From a virus (Duplodnaviria > Heunggongvirae > Uroviricota > Caudoviricetes): DNA of 9,321 nucleotides. The position numbers were made by a program, and so were the translations under genes. The stretch lies in IMG/VR virus record IMGVR_UViG_2695420859_000017; one strand, 5' to 3'. This document shows positions 827 through 9,321 of the stretch, piece by piece; within the stretch, counting starts at the first letter, position 1; each line of letters opens with the position of its first letter. Under the pieces are notes generated by a model that saw nothing but the letters and a program-made list of their open reading frames with translations, had not been told where the DNA came from and did not search any database.

Positions 827-942
827 GATGCGCATCCTCCGCCATCAGTCCCGGATGGCTTATCGCTGACACAACAGCACCTTAGCGAATCGCGGGGCGC
901 GACTCAGTAGCCTTGCCGTGTATTCATCACGGCGAGGTATTC

Positions 943-2715
943 ATGACCATCACCACAGACACCACTCTTTTACACGACCCGCGTCGTCAGGCGGCGCTGC
1001 TGTACTGGCAGGGGTTTTCCGTGCCGCAGATTGCCGCCATGTTGCAGATGAAACGCCCGACGGTGCAGAGCTGGAAACAGCGCGACGGCTGGGACAGCGT
1101 TGCCCCCATCAGCCGTGTCGAAATGAGCCTGGAAGCGCGGCTGACCCAGCTCATCATCAAACCGCAGAAAACCGGCGGTGACTTCAAGGAAATTGACCTG
1201 CTCGGACGCCAGATTGAACGACTGGCACGGGTAAACCGCTACAGTCAGACCGGCAACGAGGCAGACCTTAATCCGAACGTCGCTAACCGCAACAAAGGCG
1301 AGCGTCGCAAACCGAAAAAGAATTTTTTCAGTGACGAAGCCATCGAAAAGCTGGAGCAGATTTTCTTTGAGCAGTCTTTCGACTATCAGTTGCACTGGTA
1401 TCGCGCCGGGCTTGAGCACCGCATCCGCGATATACTGAAATCCCGCCAGATTGGCGCAACGTTTTATTTTTCCCGCGAGGCGCTGCTGCGCGCCCTGAAA
1501 ACCGGCCATAACCAGATTTTTCTGTCGGCCAGTAAAACGCAGGCGTATGTGTTCCGCGAATACATCATCGCCTTTGCCCGTCTGGTTGACGTTGACCTGA
1601 CCGGTGACCCGATTGTCCTGGGCAATAACGGCGCAAAACTAATTTTTCTCGGCACCAACTCCAACACCGCGCAGAGCCATAACGGCGACCTGTACGTCGA
1701 CGAGATTTTCTGGATCCCGAATTTTCAGGTACTGCGTAAGGTGGCATCAGGTATGGCCTCACAGAGTCACCTGCGCTCGACCTATTTCTCCACCCCGTCC
1801 ACGCTGGCGCACGACGCCTACCCGTTCTGGTCAGGTGAACTGTTCAACCGGGGACGCGCCAGCGCCGCCGAACGCGTGGAAATCGACGTCAGTCATAACG
1901 CCCTTGCCGGTGGTCTTCTCTGTGCGGACGGCCAGTGGCGGCAGATTGTCACCATTGAGGATGCCCTGAAAGGTGGCTGCACACTGTTCGACATTGAGCA
2001 GCTCAAACGTGAAAACAGCGCCGACGATTTTAAAAACCTGTTCATGTGTGAATTTGTTGACGACAAGGCGTCGGTGTTCCCGTTCGAGGAGCTGCAACGC
2101 TGCATGGTCGACACGCTGGAAGAATGGGAAGACTATGCGCCGTTTGCCGCCAATCCGTTCGGCTCACGTCCGGTATGGATTGGTTACGACCCGTCACACC
2201 GTGGCGACAGTGCCGGATGCGTGGTGCTGGCACCGCCGGTGGTGGCCGGTGGCAAATTCAGAATACTTGAGCGTCACCAGTGGAAAGGCATGGACTTTGC
2301 CACCCAGGCTGAATCCATCCGCAAACTCACCGAAAAATACAACGTCGAATACATCGGAATTGATGCCACCGGCCTCGGTGTCGGCGTGTTCCAGCTCGTT
2401 CGCTCGTTCTATCCCGCCGCGCGCGATATCCGCTACACGCCGGAAATGAAAACCGCAATGGTGCTCAAGGCAAAAGACGTTATTCGCCGTGGCTGTCTGG
2501 AATATGACGTCAGCGCCACCGACATCACCAGCTCGTTTATGGCTATCCGCAAGACCATGACCAGCAGCGGACGCAGCGCCACCTATGAGGCCAGCCGCAG
2601 CGAGGAAGCCAGCCACGCCGACCTCGCCTGGGCGACCATGCACGCCCTGTTAAATGAGCCACTCACCGCCGGTATCAGCACCCCGCTGACATCCACCATT
2701 CTGGAGTTTTACTGA
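943..2715 (+). CDS. P: Terminase large (ATPase) subunit GpP
   Basis: 590-codon ORF beginning MTITTDTTLLHDPRRQAALLYWQGFSVPQIAAMLQMKRPTVQSWKQRDGWD, recognised as P2-family GpP. ATG at 943 follows GAGG at 933..936; the ORF-track start at 913 is an upstream TTG and less likely. Stop TGA overlaps the next ATG (ATGA at 2715..2718). Confidence 0.9.
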   Translation: MTITTDTTLLHDPRRQAALLYWQGFSVPQIAAMLQMKRPTVQSWKQRDGWDSVAPISRVEMSLEARLTQLIIKPQKTGGDFKEIDLLGRQIERLARVNRYSQTGNEADLNPNVANRNKGERRKPKKNFFSDEAIEKLEQIFFEQSFDYQLHWYRAGLEHRIRDILKSRQIGATFYFSREALLRALKTGHNQIFLSASKTQAYVFREYIIAFARLVDVDLTGDPIVLGNNGAKLIFLGTNSNTAQSHNGDLYVDEIFWIPNFQVLRKVASGMASQSHLRSTYFSTPSTLAHDAYPFWSGELFNRGRASAAERVEIDVSHNALAGGLLCADGQWRQIVTIEDALKGGCTLFDIEQLKRENSADDFKNLFMCEFVDDKASVFPFEELQRCMVDTLEEWEDYAPFAANPFGSRPVWIGYDPSHRGDSAGCVVLAPPVVAGGKFRILERHQWKGMDFATQAESIRKLTEKYNVEYIGIDATGLGVGVFQLVRSFYPAARDIRYTPEMKTAMVLKAKDVIRRGCLEYDVSATDITSSFMAIRKTMTSSGRSATYEASRSEEASHADLAWATMHALLNEPLTAGISTPLTSTILEFY

Positions 2716-3872
2716 TGAGCAAGAAAAAAGGGAAAACACCGCAACCTGCGGCAAAAACAATGATCGCCAGCGCCCCGAAAATGGAGGCATTCACCTTTGG
2801 CGAGCCGGTACCGGTACTCGACCGCCGTGACATTCTTGATTACGTCGAATGCATCAGTAACGGCAGATGGTATGAGCCACCGGTCAGCTTTACCGGTCTG
2901 GCAAAAAGCCTGCGTGCCGCCGTGCATCACAGCTCCCCGATTTACGTCAAACGCAATATTCTGGCCTCGACATTTATCCCGCATCCGTGGCTTTCACAAC
3001 AGGATTTCAGCCGCTTTGTGCTGGATTTTCTGGTGTTCGGTAATGCGTTTCTGGAAAAGCGTTACAGCACCACCGGTAAGGTCATCAGACTGGAAACCTC
3101 ACCGGCAAAATATACCCGCCGTGGTGTGGAAGAGGATGTTTACTGGTGGGTGCCGTCCTTCAACGAGCCGACAGCCTTCACGCCCGGCTCCGTGTTTCAC
3201 CTGCTGGAGCCGGATATTAATCAGGAGCTGTACGGCCTGCCGGAATATCTCAGCGCCCTTAATTCTGCCTGGCTGAATGAGTCGGCCACGCTGTTTCGCC
3301 GCAAGTATTACGAAAACGGTGCTCATGCCGGATATATCATGTACGTCACTGATGCCGTGCAGGATCGCAACGATATCGAAATGCTTCGCGAAAACATGGT
3401 TAAGTCGAAAGGCCGCAACAACTTTAAAAATCTGTTTCTCTATGCCCCACAGGGGAAAGCCGACGGCATTAAAATTATCCCGCTCAGTGAAGTGGCAACG
3501 AAGGACGATTTTTTTAATATCAAAAAAGCCAGCGCCGCAGACCTGCTGGACGCGCACCGCATCCCTTTTCAGTTGATGGGCGGCAAGCCGGAGAACGTCG
3601 GGTCGCTGGGTGATATTGAGAAAGTGGCAAAGGTCTTTGTACGCCGTGGCTGTCTGGAATATGACGTCAGCGCCACCGACATCACCAGCTCGTTTATGGC
3701 TATCCGCAAGACCATGACCAGCAGCGGACGCAGCGCCACCTATGAGGCCAGCCGCAGCGAGGAAGCCAGCCACGCCGACCTCGCCTGGGCGACCATGCAC
3801 GCCCTGTTAAATGAGCCACTCACCGCCGGTATCAGCACCCCGCTGACATCCACCATTCTGGAGTTTTACTGA
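2715..3872 (+). pseudogene. Chimeric ORF: portal (GpQ) N-terminal ~309 codons fused in frame to a duplicated terminase C-terminal 76 codons
   Basis: Residues 1 to ~309 match the full portal copy at 4916..5935. From about nt 3642 the sequence shows no differences on visual comparison from terminase 2485..2715 (RRGCLEYDVSATDITSSFMAIRK...STILEFY), ending at a second copy of the P-stop/Q-start overlap. Confidence 0.55.
3642..3872 (+). repeat. Duplicate copy of the terminase 3' end (equals 2485..2715)
   Basis: Visual base-by-base comparison of 3642..3872 with 2485..2715 found no differences, including the terminal tactgATGagc junction. Confidence 0.8.
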
Positions 3873-4271
3873 TGAGCAAGAAAAAAGGGAAAACACCGCA
3901 ACCTGCGGCAAAAAAAATGACCGCCAGCACCCCGAAAATGGAGGCATTCACCTTTGGCGAGCCGGTGCCGGTACTCGACCGCCGTGACATTCTGGATTAC
4001 GTCGAATGCATCAGTAACGGCAGATGGTATGAGCCACCGGTCAGCTTTACCGGTCTGGCAAAAAGCCTGCGTGCTGCCGTGCATCACAGCTCACCGATTT
4101 ACGTCAAACGCAATATTCTGGCGTCGACATTTATCCCGCATCCGTGGCTTTCCCAGCAGGATTTCAGCCGCTTTGTGCTGGATTTTCTGGTGTTCGGTAA
4201 TGCGTTTCTGGAAAAGCGTTACAGCACCACCGGTAAAGTTATCAGGCTGGAAACCTCACCGGCAAAATATA
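3872..4271 (+). pseudogene. Portal (GpQ) 5' fragment, ~133 codons, diverged allele
   Basis: Begins MSKKKGKTPQPAAKKMTASTPKMEAF and tracks the portal to ...ETSPAKY. It differs from the other two copies by scattered single-base changes (KTMIASAP becomes KKMTASTP, plus apparently synonymous changes). After ~4271 the portal frame runs into unrelated sequence and stops at 4471. Confidence 0.55.
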
Positions 4272-4916
4272 TCGGTGTTCCCGTTCGAGGAGCTGCAACG
4301 CTGCATGGTCGACACGCTGGAAGAATGGGAAGACTATGCACCCTTTGCCGCCAATCCGTTCGGCTCCCGCCCGGTATGGATTGGTTACGACCCGTCACAC
4401 CGTGGCGACAGCGCCGGATGCGTGGTGCTGGCACCGCCGGTGGTGGCCGGTGGCAAATTCAGAATACTTGAGCGTCACCAGTGGAAAGGCATGGACTTTG
4501 CCACCCAGGCGGAATCCATCCGCAAACTCACCGAAAAATACAACGTCGAATACATCGGTATTGATGCCACCGGCCTCGGTGTCGGCGTGTTCCAGCTCGT
4601 GCGCTCGTTCTATCCTGCCGCGCGCGACATCCGCTACACGCCGGAAATGAAAACCGCAATGGTGCTCAAGGCAAAAGACGTTATCCGCCGTGGCTGTCTG
4701 GAATACGACGTCAGCGCCACCGACATCACCAGCTCGTTTATGGCTATCCGTAAGACCATGACCAGCAGCGGACGCAGCGCCACCTATGAGGCCAGCCGCA
4801 GCGAGGAAGCCAGCCACGCCGACCTCGCCTGGGCGACCATGCACGCCCTGTTAAATGAGCCACTCACCGCCGGTATCAGCACCCCGCTGACATCCACCAT
4901 TCTGGAGTTTTACTGA
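4272..4916 (+). pseudogene. Terminase (GpP) 3' fragment, ~214 codons, diverged allele, out of frame with the preceding portal fragment
   Basis: 4272..4916 corresponds to terminase 2071..2715 (VFPFEELQRCMVDTLEEWEDYAPFAANPF ... STILEFY) with several apparently synonymous single-base differences. It lies in a different frame from the portal fragment upstream; the ORF-track entry 3954..4916 is this frame reading backwards by chance. Confidence 0.55.
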
Positions 4917-5935
4917 TGAGCAAGAAAAAAGGGAAAACACCGCAACCTGCGGCAAAAACAATGATCGCCAGCGCCCCGAAAATGGAGGCATTCACCTTTG
5001 GCGAGCCGGTACCGGTACTCGACCGCCGTGACATTCTTGATTACGTCGAATGCATCAGTAACGGCAGATGGTATGAGCCACCGGTCAGCTTTACCGGTCT
5101 GGCAAAAAGCCTGCGTGCCGCCGTGCATCACAGCTCCCCGATTTACGTCAAACGCAATATTCTGGCCTCGACATTTATCCCGCATCCGTGGCTTTCACAA
5201 CAGGATTTCAGCCGCTTTGTGCTGGATTTTCTGGTGTTCGGTAATGCGTTTCTGGAAAAGCGTTACAGCACCACCGGTAAGGTCATCAGACTGGAAACCT
5301 CACCGGCAAAATATACCCGCCGTGGTGTGGAAGAGGATGTTTACTGGTGGGTGCCGTCCTTCAACGAGCCGACAGCCTTCGCGCCCGGCTCCGTGTTTCA
5401 CCTGCTGGAGCCGGATATTAATCAGGAACTGTACGGCCTGCCGGAATATCTCAGCGCCCTTAACTCTGCCTGGCTGAATGAGTCGGCCACGCTGTTCCGC
5501 CGCAAGTATTACGAAAATGGCGCACATGCCGGATACATCATGTACGTCACTGATGCCGTGCAGGACCGCAACGATATCGAAATGCTTCGCGAAAACATGG
5601 TCAAGTCGAAAGGCCGCAACAACTTTAAAAATCTGTTTCTCTATGCCCCACAGGGAAAAGCCGACGGCATTAAAATTATCCCGCTCAGTGAAGTGGCGAC
5701 GAAGGACGATTTTTTTAATATCAAAAAAGCCAGCGCGGAAGATCTAATGAGTGCCCATCGAGTCCCCCCGCAAATGATGGGGATGATGCCTAATAATGCG
5801 GGAGGATTTGGCGATGTAGTTAAAGCGGCTAAAGTTTTTGTCAGGAATGAGTTAGGGCATCTACAATCGCGAATGAAGGAATTGAACTCATGGATAGGTG
5901 AAACAGTTATAACATTTAACAATTACTCGTTATAA
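4916..5935 (+). CDS. Q: Portal protein GpQ, full length (339 aa), with a diverged AT-rich 3' end
   Basis: ORF starting MSKKKGKTPQPAAKTMIASAPKMEAFTFGEPVPVLDRRDILDYVECISNGRWYEPP, recognised as the P2-family portal. ATG overlaps the stop of the preceding terminase-derived segment. It is the only copy with a portal-type C-terminus and stop. Confidence 0.85.
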   Translation: MSKKKGKTPQPAAKTMIASAPKMEAFTFGEPVPVLDRRDILDYVECISNGRWYEPPVSFTGLAKSLRAAVHHSSPIYVKRNILASTFIPHPWLSQQDFSRFVLDFLVFGNAFLEKRYSTTGKVIRLETSPAKYTRRGVEEDVYWWVPSFNEPTAFAPGSVFHLLEPDINQELYGLPEYLSALNSAWLNESATLFRRKYYENGAHAGYIMYVTDAVQDRNDIEMLRENMVKSKGRNNFKNLFLYAPQGKADGIKIIPLSEVATKDDFFNIKKASAEDLMSAHRVPPQMMGMMPNNAGGFGDVVKAAKVFVRNELGHLQSRMKELNSWIGETVITFNNYSL

Positions 5936-5941
5936 ACCCTG

Positions 5942-5965
5942 CAGGCTTTGGCTCACCAAAGCCTG
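5942..5965. terminator. Hairpin between the convergent portal gene and the cargo operon (10-bp perfect stem CAGGCTTTGG / CCAAAGCCTG, 4-nt loop)
   Basis: Seen directly. Lies in the 35-bp gap between the Q stop (5935) and the minus-strand stop at 5971. No strong T-tract on either side, so intrinsic-terminator strength is uncertain. Confidence 0.45.
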
Positions 5966-5970
5966 TAAGA

Positions 5971-6588
5971 TCAAGCAGATAGGCAAAACGTTTCTGTTTG
6001 CCCCAAGTGTTCAAACACAGTAATCGATGTTACTTTTCCGGCACTTATTTTGTTAAGGAACTTCAATATTTGTTGAGGCTCCTCCATGACTGCTGTTTTC
6101 TTGATTATAAATCCCTCAAGATTTTTCAAGCTGTATCGCTGACTTGAGTTCTCAAGAGCAGCAATCATTGCCGAACTGCGCATATCTCTATGTCCACTAG
6201 CTCTACAAACGACAGCATAATTTAAATTAAGCTCTACAAAATTTTGCCTTGTCAACTCTGGAAGGTGTTTACATACAAAATGAAATAAAGTCGTAACACC
6301 TTCATGTATTTTCAACCTTATATCATCCTTTTGTGAACGTCCTTCTTTAAATTCAATGAAGTACAATTTATCTTCATATAAAAATAAAGCATCCGGTGAT
6401 TTTTCTTTAAACTCACGCTTATAAACAGGCGAGCAATTTAACACCGTATCATAGTTAAAGCCCTTCGAATCACAAATAATAAAATTCCGAGCCCCTGCAT
6501 CATTGTAGCTTAATCCGGTTACATCAACCATTGAATCAGGGTATACTTCACACAGTTTTCTAAAAACAAGTTCCTCATTAGAAATCAT
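5971..6588 (-). CDS. Hypothetical 205-aa protein, second gene of the cargo operon; family not recognised; possible PD-(D/E)xK-like nuclease motifs
   Basis: ATG at 6586..6588 is preceded by AGGAG (reverse complement of 6596..6600) at 7-nt spacing and overlaps the upstream gene by 11 nt (ATGATTTCTAA). Strongly AT-rich. Contains FIICD (res 36-40) and LFLYEDK / FIEFK (res 68-81), which could be PD-(D/E)xK motifs II and III; this is inference only. Confidence 0.7.
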   Translation of the reverse strand: MISNEELVFRKLCEVYPDSMVDVTGLSYNDAGARNFIICDSKGFNYDTVLNCSPVYKREFKEKSPDALFLYEDKLYFIEFKEGRSQKDDIRLKIHEGVTTLFHFVCKHLPELTRQNFVELNLNYAVVCRASGHRDMRSSAMIAALENSSQRYSLKNLEGFIIKKTAVMEEPQQILKFLNKISAGKVTSITVFEHLGQTETFCLSA

Positions 6589-7906
6589 CCAAATACTCCT
6601 GATTCAATTCTTTTAATGGTGATGCCAAAAGATTAATTGCATATGCAACATTATCAGTAATATCAACAAAAGATGTAAACTCTTCCCCAGGGAATCGCTC
6701 GCTTATATAGAACCGATTTTCAATCCCAATTTTATCGCTATAATGTTTAAGAGCATCAATAATATACGGGCTATGTGTTGTAATTATTATATCAACCCCC
6801 ATAGACACTAACTCACAAATAATCTCAGCATAGAAAACCTGCCATTTTGGATGTAAGTTCACCTCTGGCTCATCAATAATCAGTAACGAGTTATCTACTG
6901 CTGCCCCGCACTTAACAAGCATATCAAGAATACCTAAAGACTTTATTCCTGACGCAATATTACCCGATGTGACTTTATAGCCTTGCTTCTCTAGAAAAAA
7001 ATCATTCTTTTCAATATCATAAACCACTTCACCACAGAAAGTAGCATTGATTTTGTTAGATATACGCAGTGACTCTTTTAAAAATGAGCCATCATCAAAA
7101 ATATCCGAATGCACAAATAAATTATAAACTGAATCGCTTAATTTTATTGATAGATCTTTCACATGCAATGGAACAGTTAGACGTCCTGATTCACCATTAC
7201 TATCAAATAAAGTTTTAGCAAAACGAACCAAATTATGAAATTGCATAATACTTGGAGAGTCAACATAGGTTGCGTCGACATATCCTAAGCCATCAGTATA
7301 ATCAAATTGTGATATACCATCTTTAGTCCATTTAATATCAATTAACTGACTAACACCATCAACAACTTCCAGAGATGCTTTAACTGGATTTTGATTACCC
7401 TTCTGAATAATTTCGCCTCTAAATTCAGAGTAAAAGGCCTTACGCAGAGCACGGTTGATAGCAGATAGCTCATCATCTGGCTCAAGCATTATATCTCTGA
7501 TTTTTCTTATATCAGAGAGTACAGAATCAGCCATCAATTCTGGAAGAAGCCCTTCCTCAATCAAATTATATAGATAACTCTCTCTCTCAGCCAAAGTTTT
7601 AGAGATATCTATTTTTAGAGAGGCATAAAACTTTCTTGGATTGAATAACTCTCTAATTTCCGGCGTAGCAGCAATATTAATCCTCCTACGCAGATTAAAA
7701 TATATTTTCTCTACGATAGATGTAATTCTATCCTCTTTGTCTTCTTCTAAATCCTCTTGATAACGAGATATCGCCTTTACCATTGAAAACAATATTTTCC
7801 CTACGGTACTCTTCCCCGTATCATTTTCACCAGTTATGACAGTTAAACCACCAACTGAAACATCAGCTTCTGCAATAGTTCCAAAATTATTAATTTTTAT
7901 ACGCAT
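6578..7906 (-). CDS. OLD/ABC-family (AAA_15/AAA_21-like) ATPase, 442 aa, with no Toprim or other nuclease domain
   Basis: N-terminal Walker A GENDTGKST (nt 7805..7831), C-terminal Walker B LLIIDEPE (nt 6863..6886) and H-loop TTHSP (nt 6767..6781), with ~300 residues between the Walker motifs. This layout is typical of OLD/GajA/AriA/PtuA-type ATPases. Spot counts of 60-nt lines give roughly 27-30% GC against about 60% in the structural genes. Confidence 0.8.
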   Translation of the reverse strand: MRIKINNFGTIAEADVSVGGLTVITGENDTGKSTVGKILFSMVKAISRYQEDLEEDKEDRITSIVEKIYFNLRRRINIAATPEIRELFNPRKFYASLKIDISKTLAERESYLYNLIEEGLLPELMADSVLSDIRKIRDIMLEPDDELSAINRALRKAFYSEFRGEIIQKGNQNPVKASLEVVDGVSQLIDIKWTKDGISQFDYTDGLGYVDATYVDSPSIMQFHNLVRFAKTLFDSNGESGRLTVPLHVKDLSIKLSDSVYNLFVHSDIFDDGSFLKESLRISNKINATFCGEVVYDIEKNDFFLEKQGYKVTSGNIASGIKSLGILDMLVKCGAAVDNSLLIIDEPEVNLHPKWQVFYAEIICELVSMGVDIIITTHSPYIIDALKHYSDKIGIENRFYISERFPGEEFTSFVDITDNVAYAINLLASPLKELNQEYLDDF

Positions 7907-7999: not shown

Positions 8000-8018
8000 G
8001 TGCTTTCCCCGCCTCGCC
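8000..8018 (-). other. cos: cos site: 19-nt cohesive-end sequence identical to P2 (GGCGAGGCGGGGAAAGCAC on the minus strand)
   Basis: Reverse complement of 8000..8018 is GGCGAGGCGGGGAAAGCAC, followed by CTGCGCGC, matching my recollection of the P2 left end. It sits in a GC-rich block, in the expected neighbourhood of the portal gene. Confidence 0.75.
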
Positions 8019-8112
8019 CGCCCGCTTCACGGGGCGGTTTTAATGCAGTTGCATAGATACTATGGATCCGCACCAGTCCTGACCGCACGCAGCCTGAACG
8101 GACATCCCCAGC

Positions 8113-8141
8113 GCATGCAAAAACATTCACTGGTTGCATGC
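8113..8141. other. Inverted repeat GCATGCAA-N13-TTGCATGC followed by CTTTTT
   Basis: Seen directly, ~100 bp from cos. Could be a protein-binding site or a weak terminator. Confidence 0.2.
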
Positions 8142-8302
8142 ATAGCTTTTTAAGTACGCCATACCGCAACTGTACATTTTTAAGCAATTGGCAACTTTAA
8201 AAAATTTACATTGCTTTCAAGACCTTATCATCCGTAGTCTCTGTTTTTTACTTTGAGCTACATCAATAAAATCTCAAACATGTTTAATGCAAAGCCCTTG
8301 TT

Positions 8303-8356
8303 ACACAACATAGAATGTATGTCTAGAAACAACGACATACTATATGTTGTGTTTTT
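8303..8356 (+). other. Long imperfect hairpin (arms ACACAACATAGAATGTATGTC / GACATACTATATGTTGTGT, 10-nt loop) followed by a T-run; terminator-like or sRNA 3' end
   Basis: Seen directly: 10-bp and 7-bp perfect stem segments separated by a small internal loop, then TTTTT at 8352..8356. An A-tract is lacking on the other side, so orientation is plus. Confidence 0.4.
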
Positions 8357-8418
8357 CCGGCTCTCTGTTCGGTGATATGCCAAATCACTTTGCGTTTAAA
8401 CAGAGCATTATTTCAGGG

Positions 8419-8433
8419 CAAGACTTCGCTCAA
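8419..8433 (+). repeat. 15-bp direct repeat CAAGACTTCGCTCAA, copy 1
   Basis: Exact 15-mer found again at 8683..8697; the two copies bracket the small ORF and its terminator. Confidence 0.5.
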
Positions 8434-8496
8434 AAGTCATTCCACCTAAGAAGCGCATATACCGGTGGAAGTTGCCCTCTACTTACAGGAGGCAAT

Positions 8497-8610
8497 ATGA
8501 AGAAATGCTATTACTGCATTCTCGTTCTGGCCCTCTTTGGCTATCCAAACGGTAGTCCGAGTGGTTTGTCAGTAAACGTCAGTAATATCAATGTCAGCAT
8601 TATGCTTTAA
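8497..8610 (+). CDS. Small hydrophobic peptide, 37 aa (MKKCYYCILVLALFGYPNGSPSGLSVNVSNINVSIML); function unknown
   Basis: ATG at 8497 is preceded by a consensus AGGAGG at 8487..8492 (4-nt spacing). Stop at 8608..8610 is followed 13 nt later by a strong intrinsic terminator. The N-terminus is KK followed by a ~13-residue hydrophobic stretch. Short length keeps confidence low. Confidence 0.35.
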   Translation: MKKCYYCILVLALFGYPNGSPSGLSVNVSNINVSIML

Positions 8611-8622
8611 TATGCTTCAAAC

Positions 8623-8652
8623 AAAAAAACCACCTGCCAGGGTGGTTTTTTT
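8623..8652. terminator. Rho-independent terminator, bidirectional form (AAAAAAACCACC-TGCCAG-GGTGGTTTTTTT)
   Basis: Seen directly: perfect GC-containing stem with a 6-nt loop, A-tract upstream and T7 downstream. Confidence 0.8.
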
Positions 8653-8682
8653 GCGCCCATCATCAATACGATGAAAGACTGA

Positions 8683-8697
8683 CAAGACTTCGCTCAA
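8683..8697 (+). repeat. 15-bp direct repeat CAAGACTTCGCTCAA, copy 2
   Basis: Identical to 8419..8433; AAGACT-like motifs also occur at 8675..8680 and 8696..8700. Confidence 0.5.
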
Positions 8698-8912
8698 GAC
8701 GAATTATGCGTCGACATAAGGTTACCCGCAATGATTTTATTAGACTAAATGGATGGCCTTTTATGACCCGGATCAAACGGCTGTCCTTACCGACATGCTA
8801 GTCACTCAATAGCATTTAGCCTTCTAATTCAGCATGCTATTGACCTTCTGCTGCCCCATAACTGCTCCGCATAAGCCATTCAATGCCATATCAAATCACG
8901 TTGTGTTTTTAC

Positions 8913-9321
8913 TCAAATGGGTAACGAGAACCCCGGCCACTCATCAGCAACCGGATACGTGAATTTTTTCCCGTCATAATTTACGGTCGCGCCACGCGCC
9001 AGCGCCTCAAGCTCCCATCGTTGCGGCCTGATACCGTTCTGAGCGAGGTCAACGCGGATACGGGTAATTTGCAATCGTTCAGACCTGGTCAGTCTGGCAG
9101 ATGGTGCAATTTCATGCGGTTTTAACGGGATTCCGTTTCTTTGCTGACGATTTGGTGTTCTCAGTCCGTGTTTTAATGCGCCCCTGAGCACCATCACTAC
9201 CTCCGGGTCACTCCATTCGATAACACCGTCATCTACCAGATTAAGCACTGCTGCGGCGTGCTCAGAAGGTGTGGGAGCCGGTAACGAAGTATCACCACCG
9301 GTGAGCTTTCCACAGTTATTG
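8913..9321 (-). CDS. Phage protein, 3' portion only (gene starts beyond the window end); probably the last gene of the early/replication operon
   Basis: The minus-strand frame is open from the window edge (…TGGDTSLPAPTPSEHAAAVLNLVDDGVIEWSDPEV…) to TGA at 8913..8915. The ORF-track start at 9248 is an internal GTG. GC content is backbone-like. Product assignment is positional inference only. Confidence 0.55.
   Translation of the reverse strand, partial: NNCGKLTGGDTSLPAPTPSEHAAAVLNLVDDGVIEWSDPEVVMVLRGALKHGLRTPNRQQRNGIPLKPHEIAPSARLTRSERLQITRIRVDLAQNGIRPQRWELEALARGATVNYDGKKFTYPVADEWPGFSLPI

Follow-up and report, generated by a model that had tools for sequence, protein, structure and literature searches.

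A predicted stand-alone PD-(D/E)xK nuclease paired with an OLD-type ABC ATPase in the defence hotspot of a P2-like prophage

Introduction

A known class of anti-phage systems, represented by HEC-02, PD-T4-4 and WonAB, combines an ABC ATPase with a PD-(D/E)xK protein. HEC-02 consists of the ABC ATPase HEC-02A and the NERD-like PD-(D/E)xK protein HEC-02B, and its defence requires both genes (Payne et al. 2024, 10.1101/2024.01.29.577857). PD-T4-4, found on mobile elements of E. coli, consists of the P-loop/ABC ATPase PD-T4-4_A and the PD-(D/E)xK protein PD-T4-4_B (Vassallo et al. 2022). WonAB is an abortive-infection system of the V. cholerae WASA-1 prophage, in which defence is abolished by the K71A mutation of WonB and in ATPase mutants of WonA (Adams et al. 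2025, PMC12137116). The toxicity of WonB needs WonA and its ATPase activity; genomic DNA stays intact during this toxicity and translation stops (PMC12137116), which suggests an RNA target for WonB. Operons of the type 'OLD-ABC ATPase + novel REase' were noted in the same study (Adams et al. 2025, PMC12137116). In phage P2, the interval from gpQ through cos to gpA is a defence hotspot (Rousset et al. 2022; Vassallo et al. 2022).

In this study, we analysed a stretch of 9,321 nt from the IMG/VR virus record IMGVR_UViG_2695420859_000017 (Caudoviricetes), referred to below as the window. It carries, on the minus strand, an ABC ATPase gene followed by the gene of a small protein, hereafter the partner. 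From conservation, a structure model and analogy with the systems above, we propose that the partner is very probably a stand-alone PD-(D/E)xK nuclease and would be the effector in a putative anti-phage cassette of two genes in a P2-like prophage.

Comparison of the gene pair with described systems

The ATPase gene (6578..7906, minus strand; RefSeq WP_001220547, 'AAA family ATPase') encodes an OLD-type ABC ATPase of 442 aa, the predicted sensor or regulator of the pair. In its Walker A motif, G26-E-N-D-T-G-K32-S-T34 (7805..7831, minus strand), residues G26, N28, G31, K32, S33 and T34 are invariant among 50 homologues. Likewise invariant are D345, E346, P347, E348, L351 and H352 in the Walker B and OLD-type D-loop segment LLIID345-E346-PEVNLHP (6848..6886, minus strand), and H378, S379 and P380 at the H-loop (H378, 6773-6775, minus strand). 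The protein consists of an ABC head that carries a helical insert, and contains no nuclease domain, as a sequence-only reading of the window had supposed when it spoke of an ATPase lacking its own nuclease. The partner gene (5971..6588, minus strand; RefSeq WP_000624949, 'hypothetical protein') encodes 205 aa and overlaps the ATPase gene by 11 nt (ATGATTTCTAA; 6578..6588, minus strand), its ATG lying within the last codons of the latter. This overlap suggests translational coupling; at related loci, the two genes abut or overlap in like fashion. Between the convergent portal and partner genes lies a GC-rich hairpin of 10-12 bp (5942..5965), with a fold energy of -19.7 to -21.4 kcal/mol and a z-score of about -4, which none of 200 shuffles equalled; it is likely a bidirectional terminator. 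A sigma-70 promoter scan from cos to the ATPase start gave no convincing site.

Among the PADLOC models, one for HEC-02A fits the ATPase best (PDLC04214, 1.8e-33), followed by PD-T4-4_A (1.7e-30); another HEC-02A model, PDLC04213, matches at 5.7e-25. The arrangement is also that of HEC-02, where an ABC ATPase without a nuclease domain precedes a small PD-(D/E)xK protein with a (D/E/Q)xK motif. However, the HEC-02A match comes in two stretches, the best of which covers the C-terminal ABC core only (273-396), and the 442 aa of the ATPase compare with a model of 338 positions. The second components correspond less well. For the partner family we used a close alignment of 45 homologues with 36-83% identity and a wide alignment of 93 sequences with 15-29% identity to the partner. 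The HEC-02B models did not match the window partner at E <= 1, matched one of the 45 close homologues at 0.011, and matched eight of the 93 distant relatives at 1.5e-5 to 2.2e-4, a link at the level of the superfamily only; Pfam NERD matched neither the partner nor any of the 45 close or 93 distant relatives. HEC-02 is moreover embedded in an Hma system, whereas the cassette occupies the P2 hotspot. PD-T4-4, which sits in an ICE-like element, shows the same asymmetry: its PD-T4-4_B model matches neither the partner nor its close or distant relatives.

WonAB resembles the cassette in that it is borne by a prophage and joins an ABC ATPase of the OLD type, whose Walker B is followed by EPExxL[HY]P, to a small PD-(D/E)xK variant; the Walker B region of the ATPase aligns with WonA in this motif. 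Beyond it, hhalign relates the ATPase to WonA with 98.9% probability over 186 columns at about 20% identity, in the ABC core and not over the whole length. The partner reached an hhalign probability of 4-8% with WonB and 28-46% with the cyanobacterial novel REase. In the former alignment, D66 of the partner falls on the conserved C-D and E79-x-K81 on E-L-K, whose lysine we take to be K71; in the latter, D66 falls on a conserved D and the ExK on E-x-K. Since these alignments (4-46%) are at the level of the motif only, membership of the partner in the WonB or novel REase family was rejected. The WonB motif reads CD...ELKGSD..KA..Q and homology of the partner to WonB was not found; the two also differ in size, WonB being a protein of about 16 kDa (143-154 aa in the homologues listed) and the partner one of 205 aa with an extra C-terminal alpha/beta part. 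The motifs of the partner family were not found in the accessible portion of the hit tables of Adams et al. 2025.

More distant systems differ in the nuclease itself. PtuB of Septu is an HNH nuclease, whereas the partner, unlike Septu and retron-associated PtuAB, has no HNH signal and matches the PD-(D/E)xK fold; the PADLOC PtuA scores of the ATPase (1e-13 to 1e-18) are far below those of HEC-02A. In contrast to OLD, Gabija GajA and PARIS AriAB, neither protein of the pair contains a TOPRIM or DUF4435 domain, and the nuclease fold is another one. The nuclease domains of the CARF-PD-(D/E)xK proteins Can2 and Card1 are the closest solved folds to the partner, at 9-16% identity; however, the partner has no CARF sensor, and its presumed control is by the ATPase rather than by cyclic oligoadenylate. 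Our literature searches, covering PD-T4-4, WonAB, HEC-02 and PDC-M29/M47, found no named system that matches the pair. Judged by its sequences, the cassette is a new family within the known ABC ATPase and PD-(D/E)xK class and belongs to none of the named systems, because the partner fails the B models of HEC-02 and PD-T4-4 and aligns with WonB at the motif level only, and because the ATPase shares just the ABC core with WonA.

Conservation and fold of the partner

The sequence-only reading had proposed a PD-(D/E)xK nuclease core with FIICD as motif II and either LFLYEDK or FIEFK as motif III. The strings are located as it described: FIICD ends at D40, LFLYEDK spans residues 68-74 with E72 and K74, and FIEFK spans 77-81 with E79 and K81, which gives spacings of 32 and 39 residues. 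It called this pattern weak evidence, rightly so, as a loose 'hhhD ... hh[DE]xK' occurs in 4.6% of composition-matched shuffles of the partner. The stricter 'PD ... hh[DE]xK' occurs in 1%. A literal PD at P65-D66 (SPDALF), overlooked in that reading, is present in 45 of 45 close homologues and is followed 12 residues on by E79-F-K81.

Conservation separates these alternatives clearly. In the close alignment, S27, D47, N51, P65, D66, F77, E79, K81, G83, R91 and K93 are identical in all 45 sequences. At the distances of the wide alignment, D66, E79 and K93 are each retained in 93 of 93 sequences, D47 in 92 and K81 in 91, and position 96 is E or D in 85. An active site of D40 with E72-x-K74 would have in its favour that the strings are present and resemble the ends of hydrophobic strands. 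However, D40 is an aspartate in 21 of the 45 close and 18 of the 93 distant homologues, E72 is kept in 2 of 45 and K74 in 19 of 45, and the structure model places D40 in a turn before strand 1 and residues 72-73 in the variable turn between strands 2 and 3. Because they vary so much across the close family, D40, E72 and K74 are chance features, and a site built on them is already refuted by conservation. The second choice of the reading, E79-x-K81, passed the same comparison, and the counts identify P65-D66 followed by E79-F-K81 as the true signature, with P65-D66 as motif II. Thus, the nuclease core that it suggested is borne out by the fold and by a conserved signature, but not by the assignment of D40 and E72/K74; the guess at function was very probably right and the aspartate wrong, D66 taking the place of D40.

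The catalytic core, from the P65 to the K93 codon, occupies 6310..6396 on the minus strand, with D66 at 6391-6393, E79 at 6352-6354, K81 at 6346-6348 and K93 at 6310-6312; the codon of the invariant D47 lies upstream at 6448-6450 (minus strand). The best explanation of the conservation is that D66, E79 and K81 are the predicted metal-binding and catalytic residues, while D47, K93 and E96 are presumably in or near the active site.

An AF2 model built on the 45-sequence alignment (pLDDT 86.7, pTM 0.84) agreed with the expected PD-(D/E)xK-type fold. Its elements run in the order helix 4-15, strands 42-45, 67-71 and 74-81, helix 87-108 and strand 122-128, followed by an extra alpha/beta part, so that the alpha-beta-beta-beta-alpha-beta core of restriction endonucleases is present. 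D66 is found at the N-terminal end of strand 2, strand 3 contains both E79 and K81, and K93 is on the helix 87-108, while D40 is in the hairpin turn before strand 1. The model therefore shows the two features by which PD-(D/E)xK proteins are recognised, a conserved acidic residue opening strand 2 and a conserved (D/E)xK within strand 3, and its secondary structure suggests that D47, D66, E79, K81 and K93 cluster in space. Foldseek matches included Hef/XPF, N.BspD6I, Mus81, HincII and bunyaviral cap-snatching endonucleases, all weakly.

Sequence comparisons point the same way. The partner itself gave nothing below E 0.02 against Pfam, NCBIfam and PADLOC, and sequence searches of PDB chains with the close and wide profiles returned no meaningful match. 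Among the 45 close members, seven matched Pfam L_protein_N, a bunyaviral PD-(D/E)xK endonuclease (best E 0.022), and PADLOC returned CARF_PDDEXK at 6e-4, HEC-02B at 0.011 and PDC-M29B in 11 of 45; among the 93 distant relatives it returned HEC-02B in eight, Cas4 in two and NERD in one, with single weak Pfam matches to SduA_C and Tox-REase-9. These links are weak but one-directional, all of them leading to the PD-(D/E)xK superfamily. A precomputed Pfam tag of one distant relative (PF09520) was dropped, as a re-scan did not reproduce it.

Inactive PD-(D/E)xK folds are known, and together with the weakness of the structural matches this leaves room for a partner that keeps the fold but is no enzyme, and that instead binds nucleic acid on behalf of the ATPase, as its sensor or adaptor. 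We consider this quite improbable, since D66, E79, K81, D47 and K93 are retained in 91-93 of 93 relatives at 15-29% identity. Exact retention of the canonical catalytic positions at such distances indicates selection on chemistry rather than on the fold alone, and hence argues for the partner as a catalytic nuclease.

The aligned nuclease core does not include the C-terminal third of the partner (residues 139-205, window 5971-6174). This third contains the motif LKNLEG (residues 153-159), in which L154, N156 and G159 are invariant in the close family but are not conserved in the wider superfamily. This region is a candidate docking surface for the ATPase, putatively co-varying with the ATPase subtype.

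Distribution and the P2 hotspot

A search of 5.8 billion proteins yielded 64 homologues of the partner, every one about 200 aa long and 'hypothetical', and among 1.84 billion cluster representatives, searched exhaustively with a profile, there were 567 relatives at E <= 0.001. In PHROGs, the partner matched the unannotated family phrog_25533 only. We examined 12 loci, from E. coli, Enterovibrio, Cedecea, Oceanospirillum, Pseudoduganella, Fusobacterium, Macrococcus, metagenomic contigs and a Clostridia MAG; a contig scan with the family profile gave only five loci, and wider context was obtained through exact-protein look-ups. In 11 of the 12, an ATPase of the same family (HMM E 1e-52 to 1e-196) lies directly upstream of the partner in the same direction, so that the pair occurs in Proteobacteria, Fusobacterium and Macrococcus. 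For at least 13 pairs of partner and ATPase homologues, the longest contigs of the two are equally long and the identities to the window proteins drop in step, and these genes are probably adjacent on one contig. The exception among the loci is in the Clostridia MAG (L006, 1341-1814), where no ABC ATPase gene precedes a partner-like fragment that matches the wide alignment at a profile E of 1.5e-25. This ORF sits directly before a serine recombinase gene, and may represent an orphan, or a copy that is decaying on a mobile element.

The window represents a P2-like prophage, and the cassette is 100% identical in seven complete E. coli chromosomes, in which its neighbours are annotated 'phage portal protein' on one side and 'replication endonuclease' on the other. 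In the window, one border is the P2-type portal (gpQ) gene (4916..5935, plus strand), an ORF that bears the label 'phage portal protein' in L001, the identical prophage. The other is the gene of the P2 replication endonuclease (gpA), which runs off the window and of which the window contains the 3' end (8913..9321, minus strand); the window coordinate plus 6061 gives the L001 coordinate, and L001 14974-17250 is annotated 'replication endonuclease'. An exact match to GGCGAGGCGGGGAAAGCAC, which we take to be the P2 cos sequence, was found at 8000..8018 on the minus strand (0.01 expected by chance), 93 nt upstream of the ATPase start codon, and this adjoining site marks the cassette as cos-adjacent hotspot cargo. 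The GC content of the cassette is 34-36%, against 54-57% in the phage backbone, and the partner is carried by 8 of 5426 complete E. coli genomes, against 1757 that carry the neighbouring terminase/portal DNA. The cassette is thus placed as cargo of the P2 hotspot is, between gpQ and gpA, by cos, and variable between prophages. The exact pair, with both protein sequences identical, is system #73 of the P2 hotspot census, with 57 occurrences (Rousset et al. 2022 Table S5B); it is labelled 'AAA_15/AAA_21' there, and the second protein stands without a note. By accession and by sequence string, the pair is not among the systems tested in that study (Rousset et al. 2022 Table S2).

The location, 93 nt and one gene from cos and adjoining the portal gene, would also suit a nuclease of the phage's own DNA metabolism, for instance one associated with cos or replication, rather than one of defence. 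Such a role is very improbable given the rarity of the gene (8 against 1757 genomes with the adjoining phage DNA) and a GC content 20 points under that of the backbone. Furthermore, tblastn with the partner matched none of 50,697 deposited phage genomes, and homologous pairs are known from non-phage contexts.

A related fragment was seen in RefSeq NZ_CP159691.1 (3847 bp), named 'plasmid unnamed3'. This linear 3.8-kb P2-like hotspot fragment contains a portal pseudogene fragment, a version of the cassette with 96.7% identity and another three small genes. Rather than a plasmid, it is almost certainly a prophage contig that was left unplaced.

Proposed mechanism and substrate

On the model of HEC-02, PD-T4-4, WonAB and Septu, the ATPase, probably as a dimer, would bind the nuclease and detect an infection cue; a contact between the two proteins is suggested by synteny. 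Binding or hydrolysis of ATP would then license the nuclease, and cleavage of nucleic acid would stop phage development, most likely through abortive infection. We regard this course, from sensing by the ATPase to an aborted infection, as the likely one. WonAB is its best experimental model, as it combines abortive infection with a nuclease that depends on the ATPase and with an arrest of translation.

Being two small genes that overlap and are carried by a mobile element, the pair could also act in toxin-antitoxin fashion, as an addiction module stabilising the prophage, with the nuclease as toxin and the ATPase as a simple neutralising antitoxin, and without any sensing of phage. The Pfam AAA_21 label ('putative AbiEii toxin, Type IV TA system') and the toxicity of over-produced WonB alone could be read in this way. 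However, the toxicity of WonAB requires WonA together with its ATPase activity, and this dependence on active WonA excludes simple sequestration in that system. Defence by HEC-02 likewise needs both genes, and the pair is also found at chromosomal sites outside prophages, for example by housekeeping genes in Fusobacterium. Addiction is therefore an improbable function of the pair, and an ATPase-licensed defence nuclease remains the preferred reading.

The substrate of such a nuclease may be either DNA or RNA. DNA is the default substrate of the PD-(D/E)xK fold and, by analogy, is slightly favoured for the partner. The same architecture could instead act on tRNA or rRNA and shut down translation as proposed for WonB, a possibility that we hold to be real, if the less probable one. 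In its favour, WonB toxicity spares genomic DNA and stops translation, and the ABC-ATPase systems PARIS, whose AriB cleaves tRNA, and OLD are both reported to have tRNA as a target. The only Pfam signal of the family, in seven of 45 members, is that of the RNA-cleaving bunyaviral L-protein endonuclease, and cap-snatching endonucleases recur in the Foldseek list. In addition, conservation is stricter for K93, which sits on the helix that follows strand 3, than for K81; endonucleases of the influenza PA type have their catalytic lysine on the following helix, a position that K93 resembles. In the accessible part of a 2026 preprint, P2 OLD is described as an abortive tRNase. On the other side, all of these similarities are below significance, and hhalign to WonB gave a probability of only 4-8%. 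It is more doubtful still, and rather unlikely, that the partner belongs to an unrecognised family of ABC-ATPase-licensed PD-(D/E)xK nucleases that target tRNA or rRNA, with K93 catalytic as in influenza PA and bunyaviral cap-snatching enzymes. If true, the RNA-targeting family would extend the suspected translation arrest of WonAB to a widespread family that crosses phyla (567 cluster representatives, E <= 0.001).

For a protein that is 'hypothetical' in RefSeq and a bare entry in the 2022 census of the P2 hotspot, the present analysis provides a testable function and a list of residues (D66, E79, K81, K93 and D47). PADLOC v2 would not call the pair as a system, because component B fails every model. 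Considering the hundreds of related clusters and the occurrence of the pair in Proteobacteria, Fusobacterium and Macrococcus, defence annotation probably under-counts this class. The cassette introduces no new principle and is ordinary for the P2 hotspot; alongside HEC-02, PD-T4-4 and WonAB, it lends support to the idea of OLD-type ABC ATPases as interchangeable sensors for varied nuclease effectors.

Other features of the window

The junction between the 3' part of the terminase gene and the 5' part of the portal gene occurs three times in the window at 97-99% identity (2469-2768, 3626-3925 and 4670-4969), with further repeat copies at 2071-2370 and 4272-4571. The repeats yield the chimeric ORFs 2715-3872, 3872-4471 and 3954-4916 ahead of the intact portal gene 4916-5935. 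In each of the complete E. coli genomes with this region, the 5041 nt of positions 900-5940 correspond to no more than about 2840 nt, so that the triplication is unique to the source of the window. It could reflect a genuine tandem rearrangement, or an artefact of an assembly in which several P2-like prophages were mixed.

An Rfam scan of the window gave no match. Between cos and the gpA stop codon, about 900 nt (8019-8912; GC 43%) have no annotated gene in the identical reference prophage and contain one unconvincing ORF only, of 88 aa (8344-8610, plus strand). Directly against cos, at 8018-8037, there is a GC-rich hairpin with a T-run behind it. The corresponding space of another strain is occupied by extra genes, including one for a DUF3850 protein.
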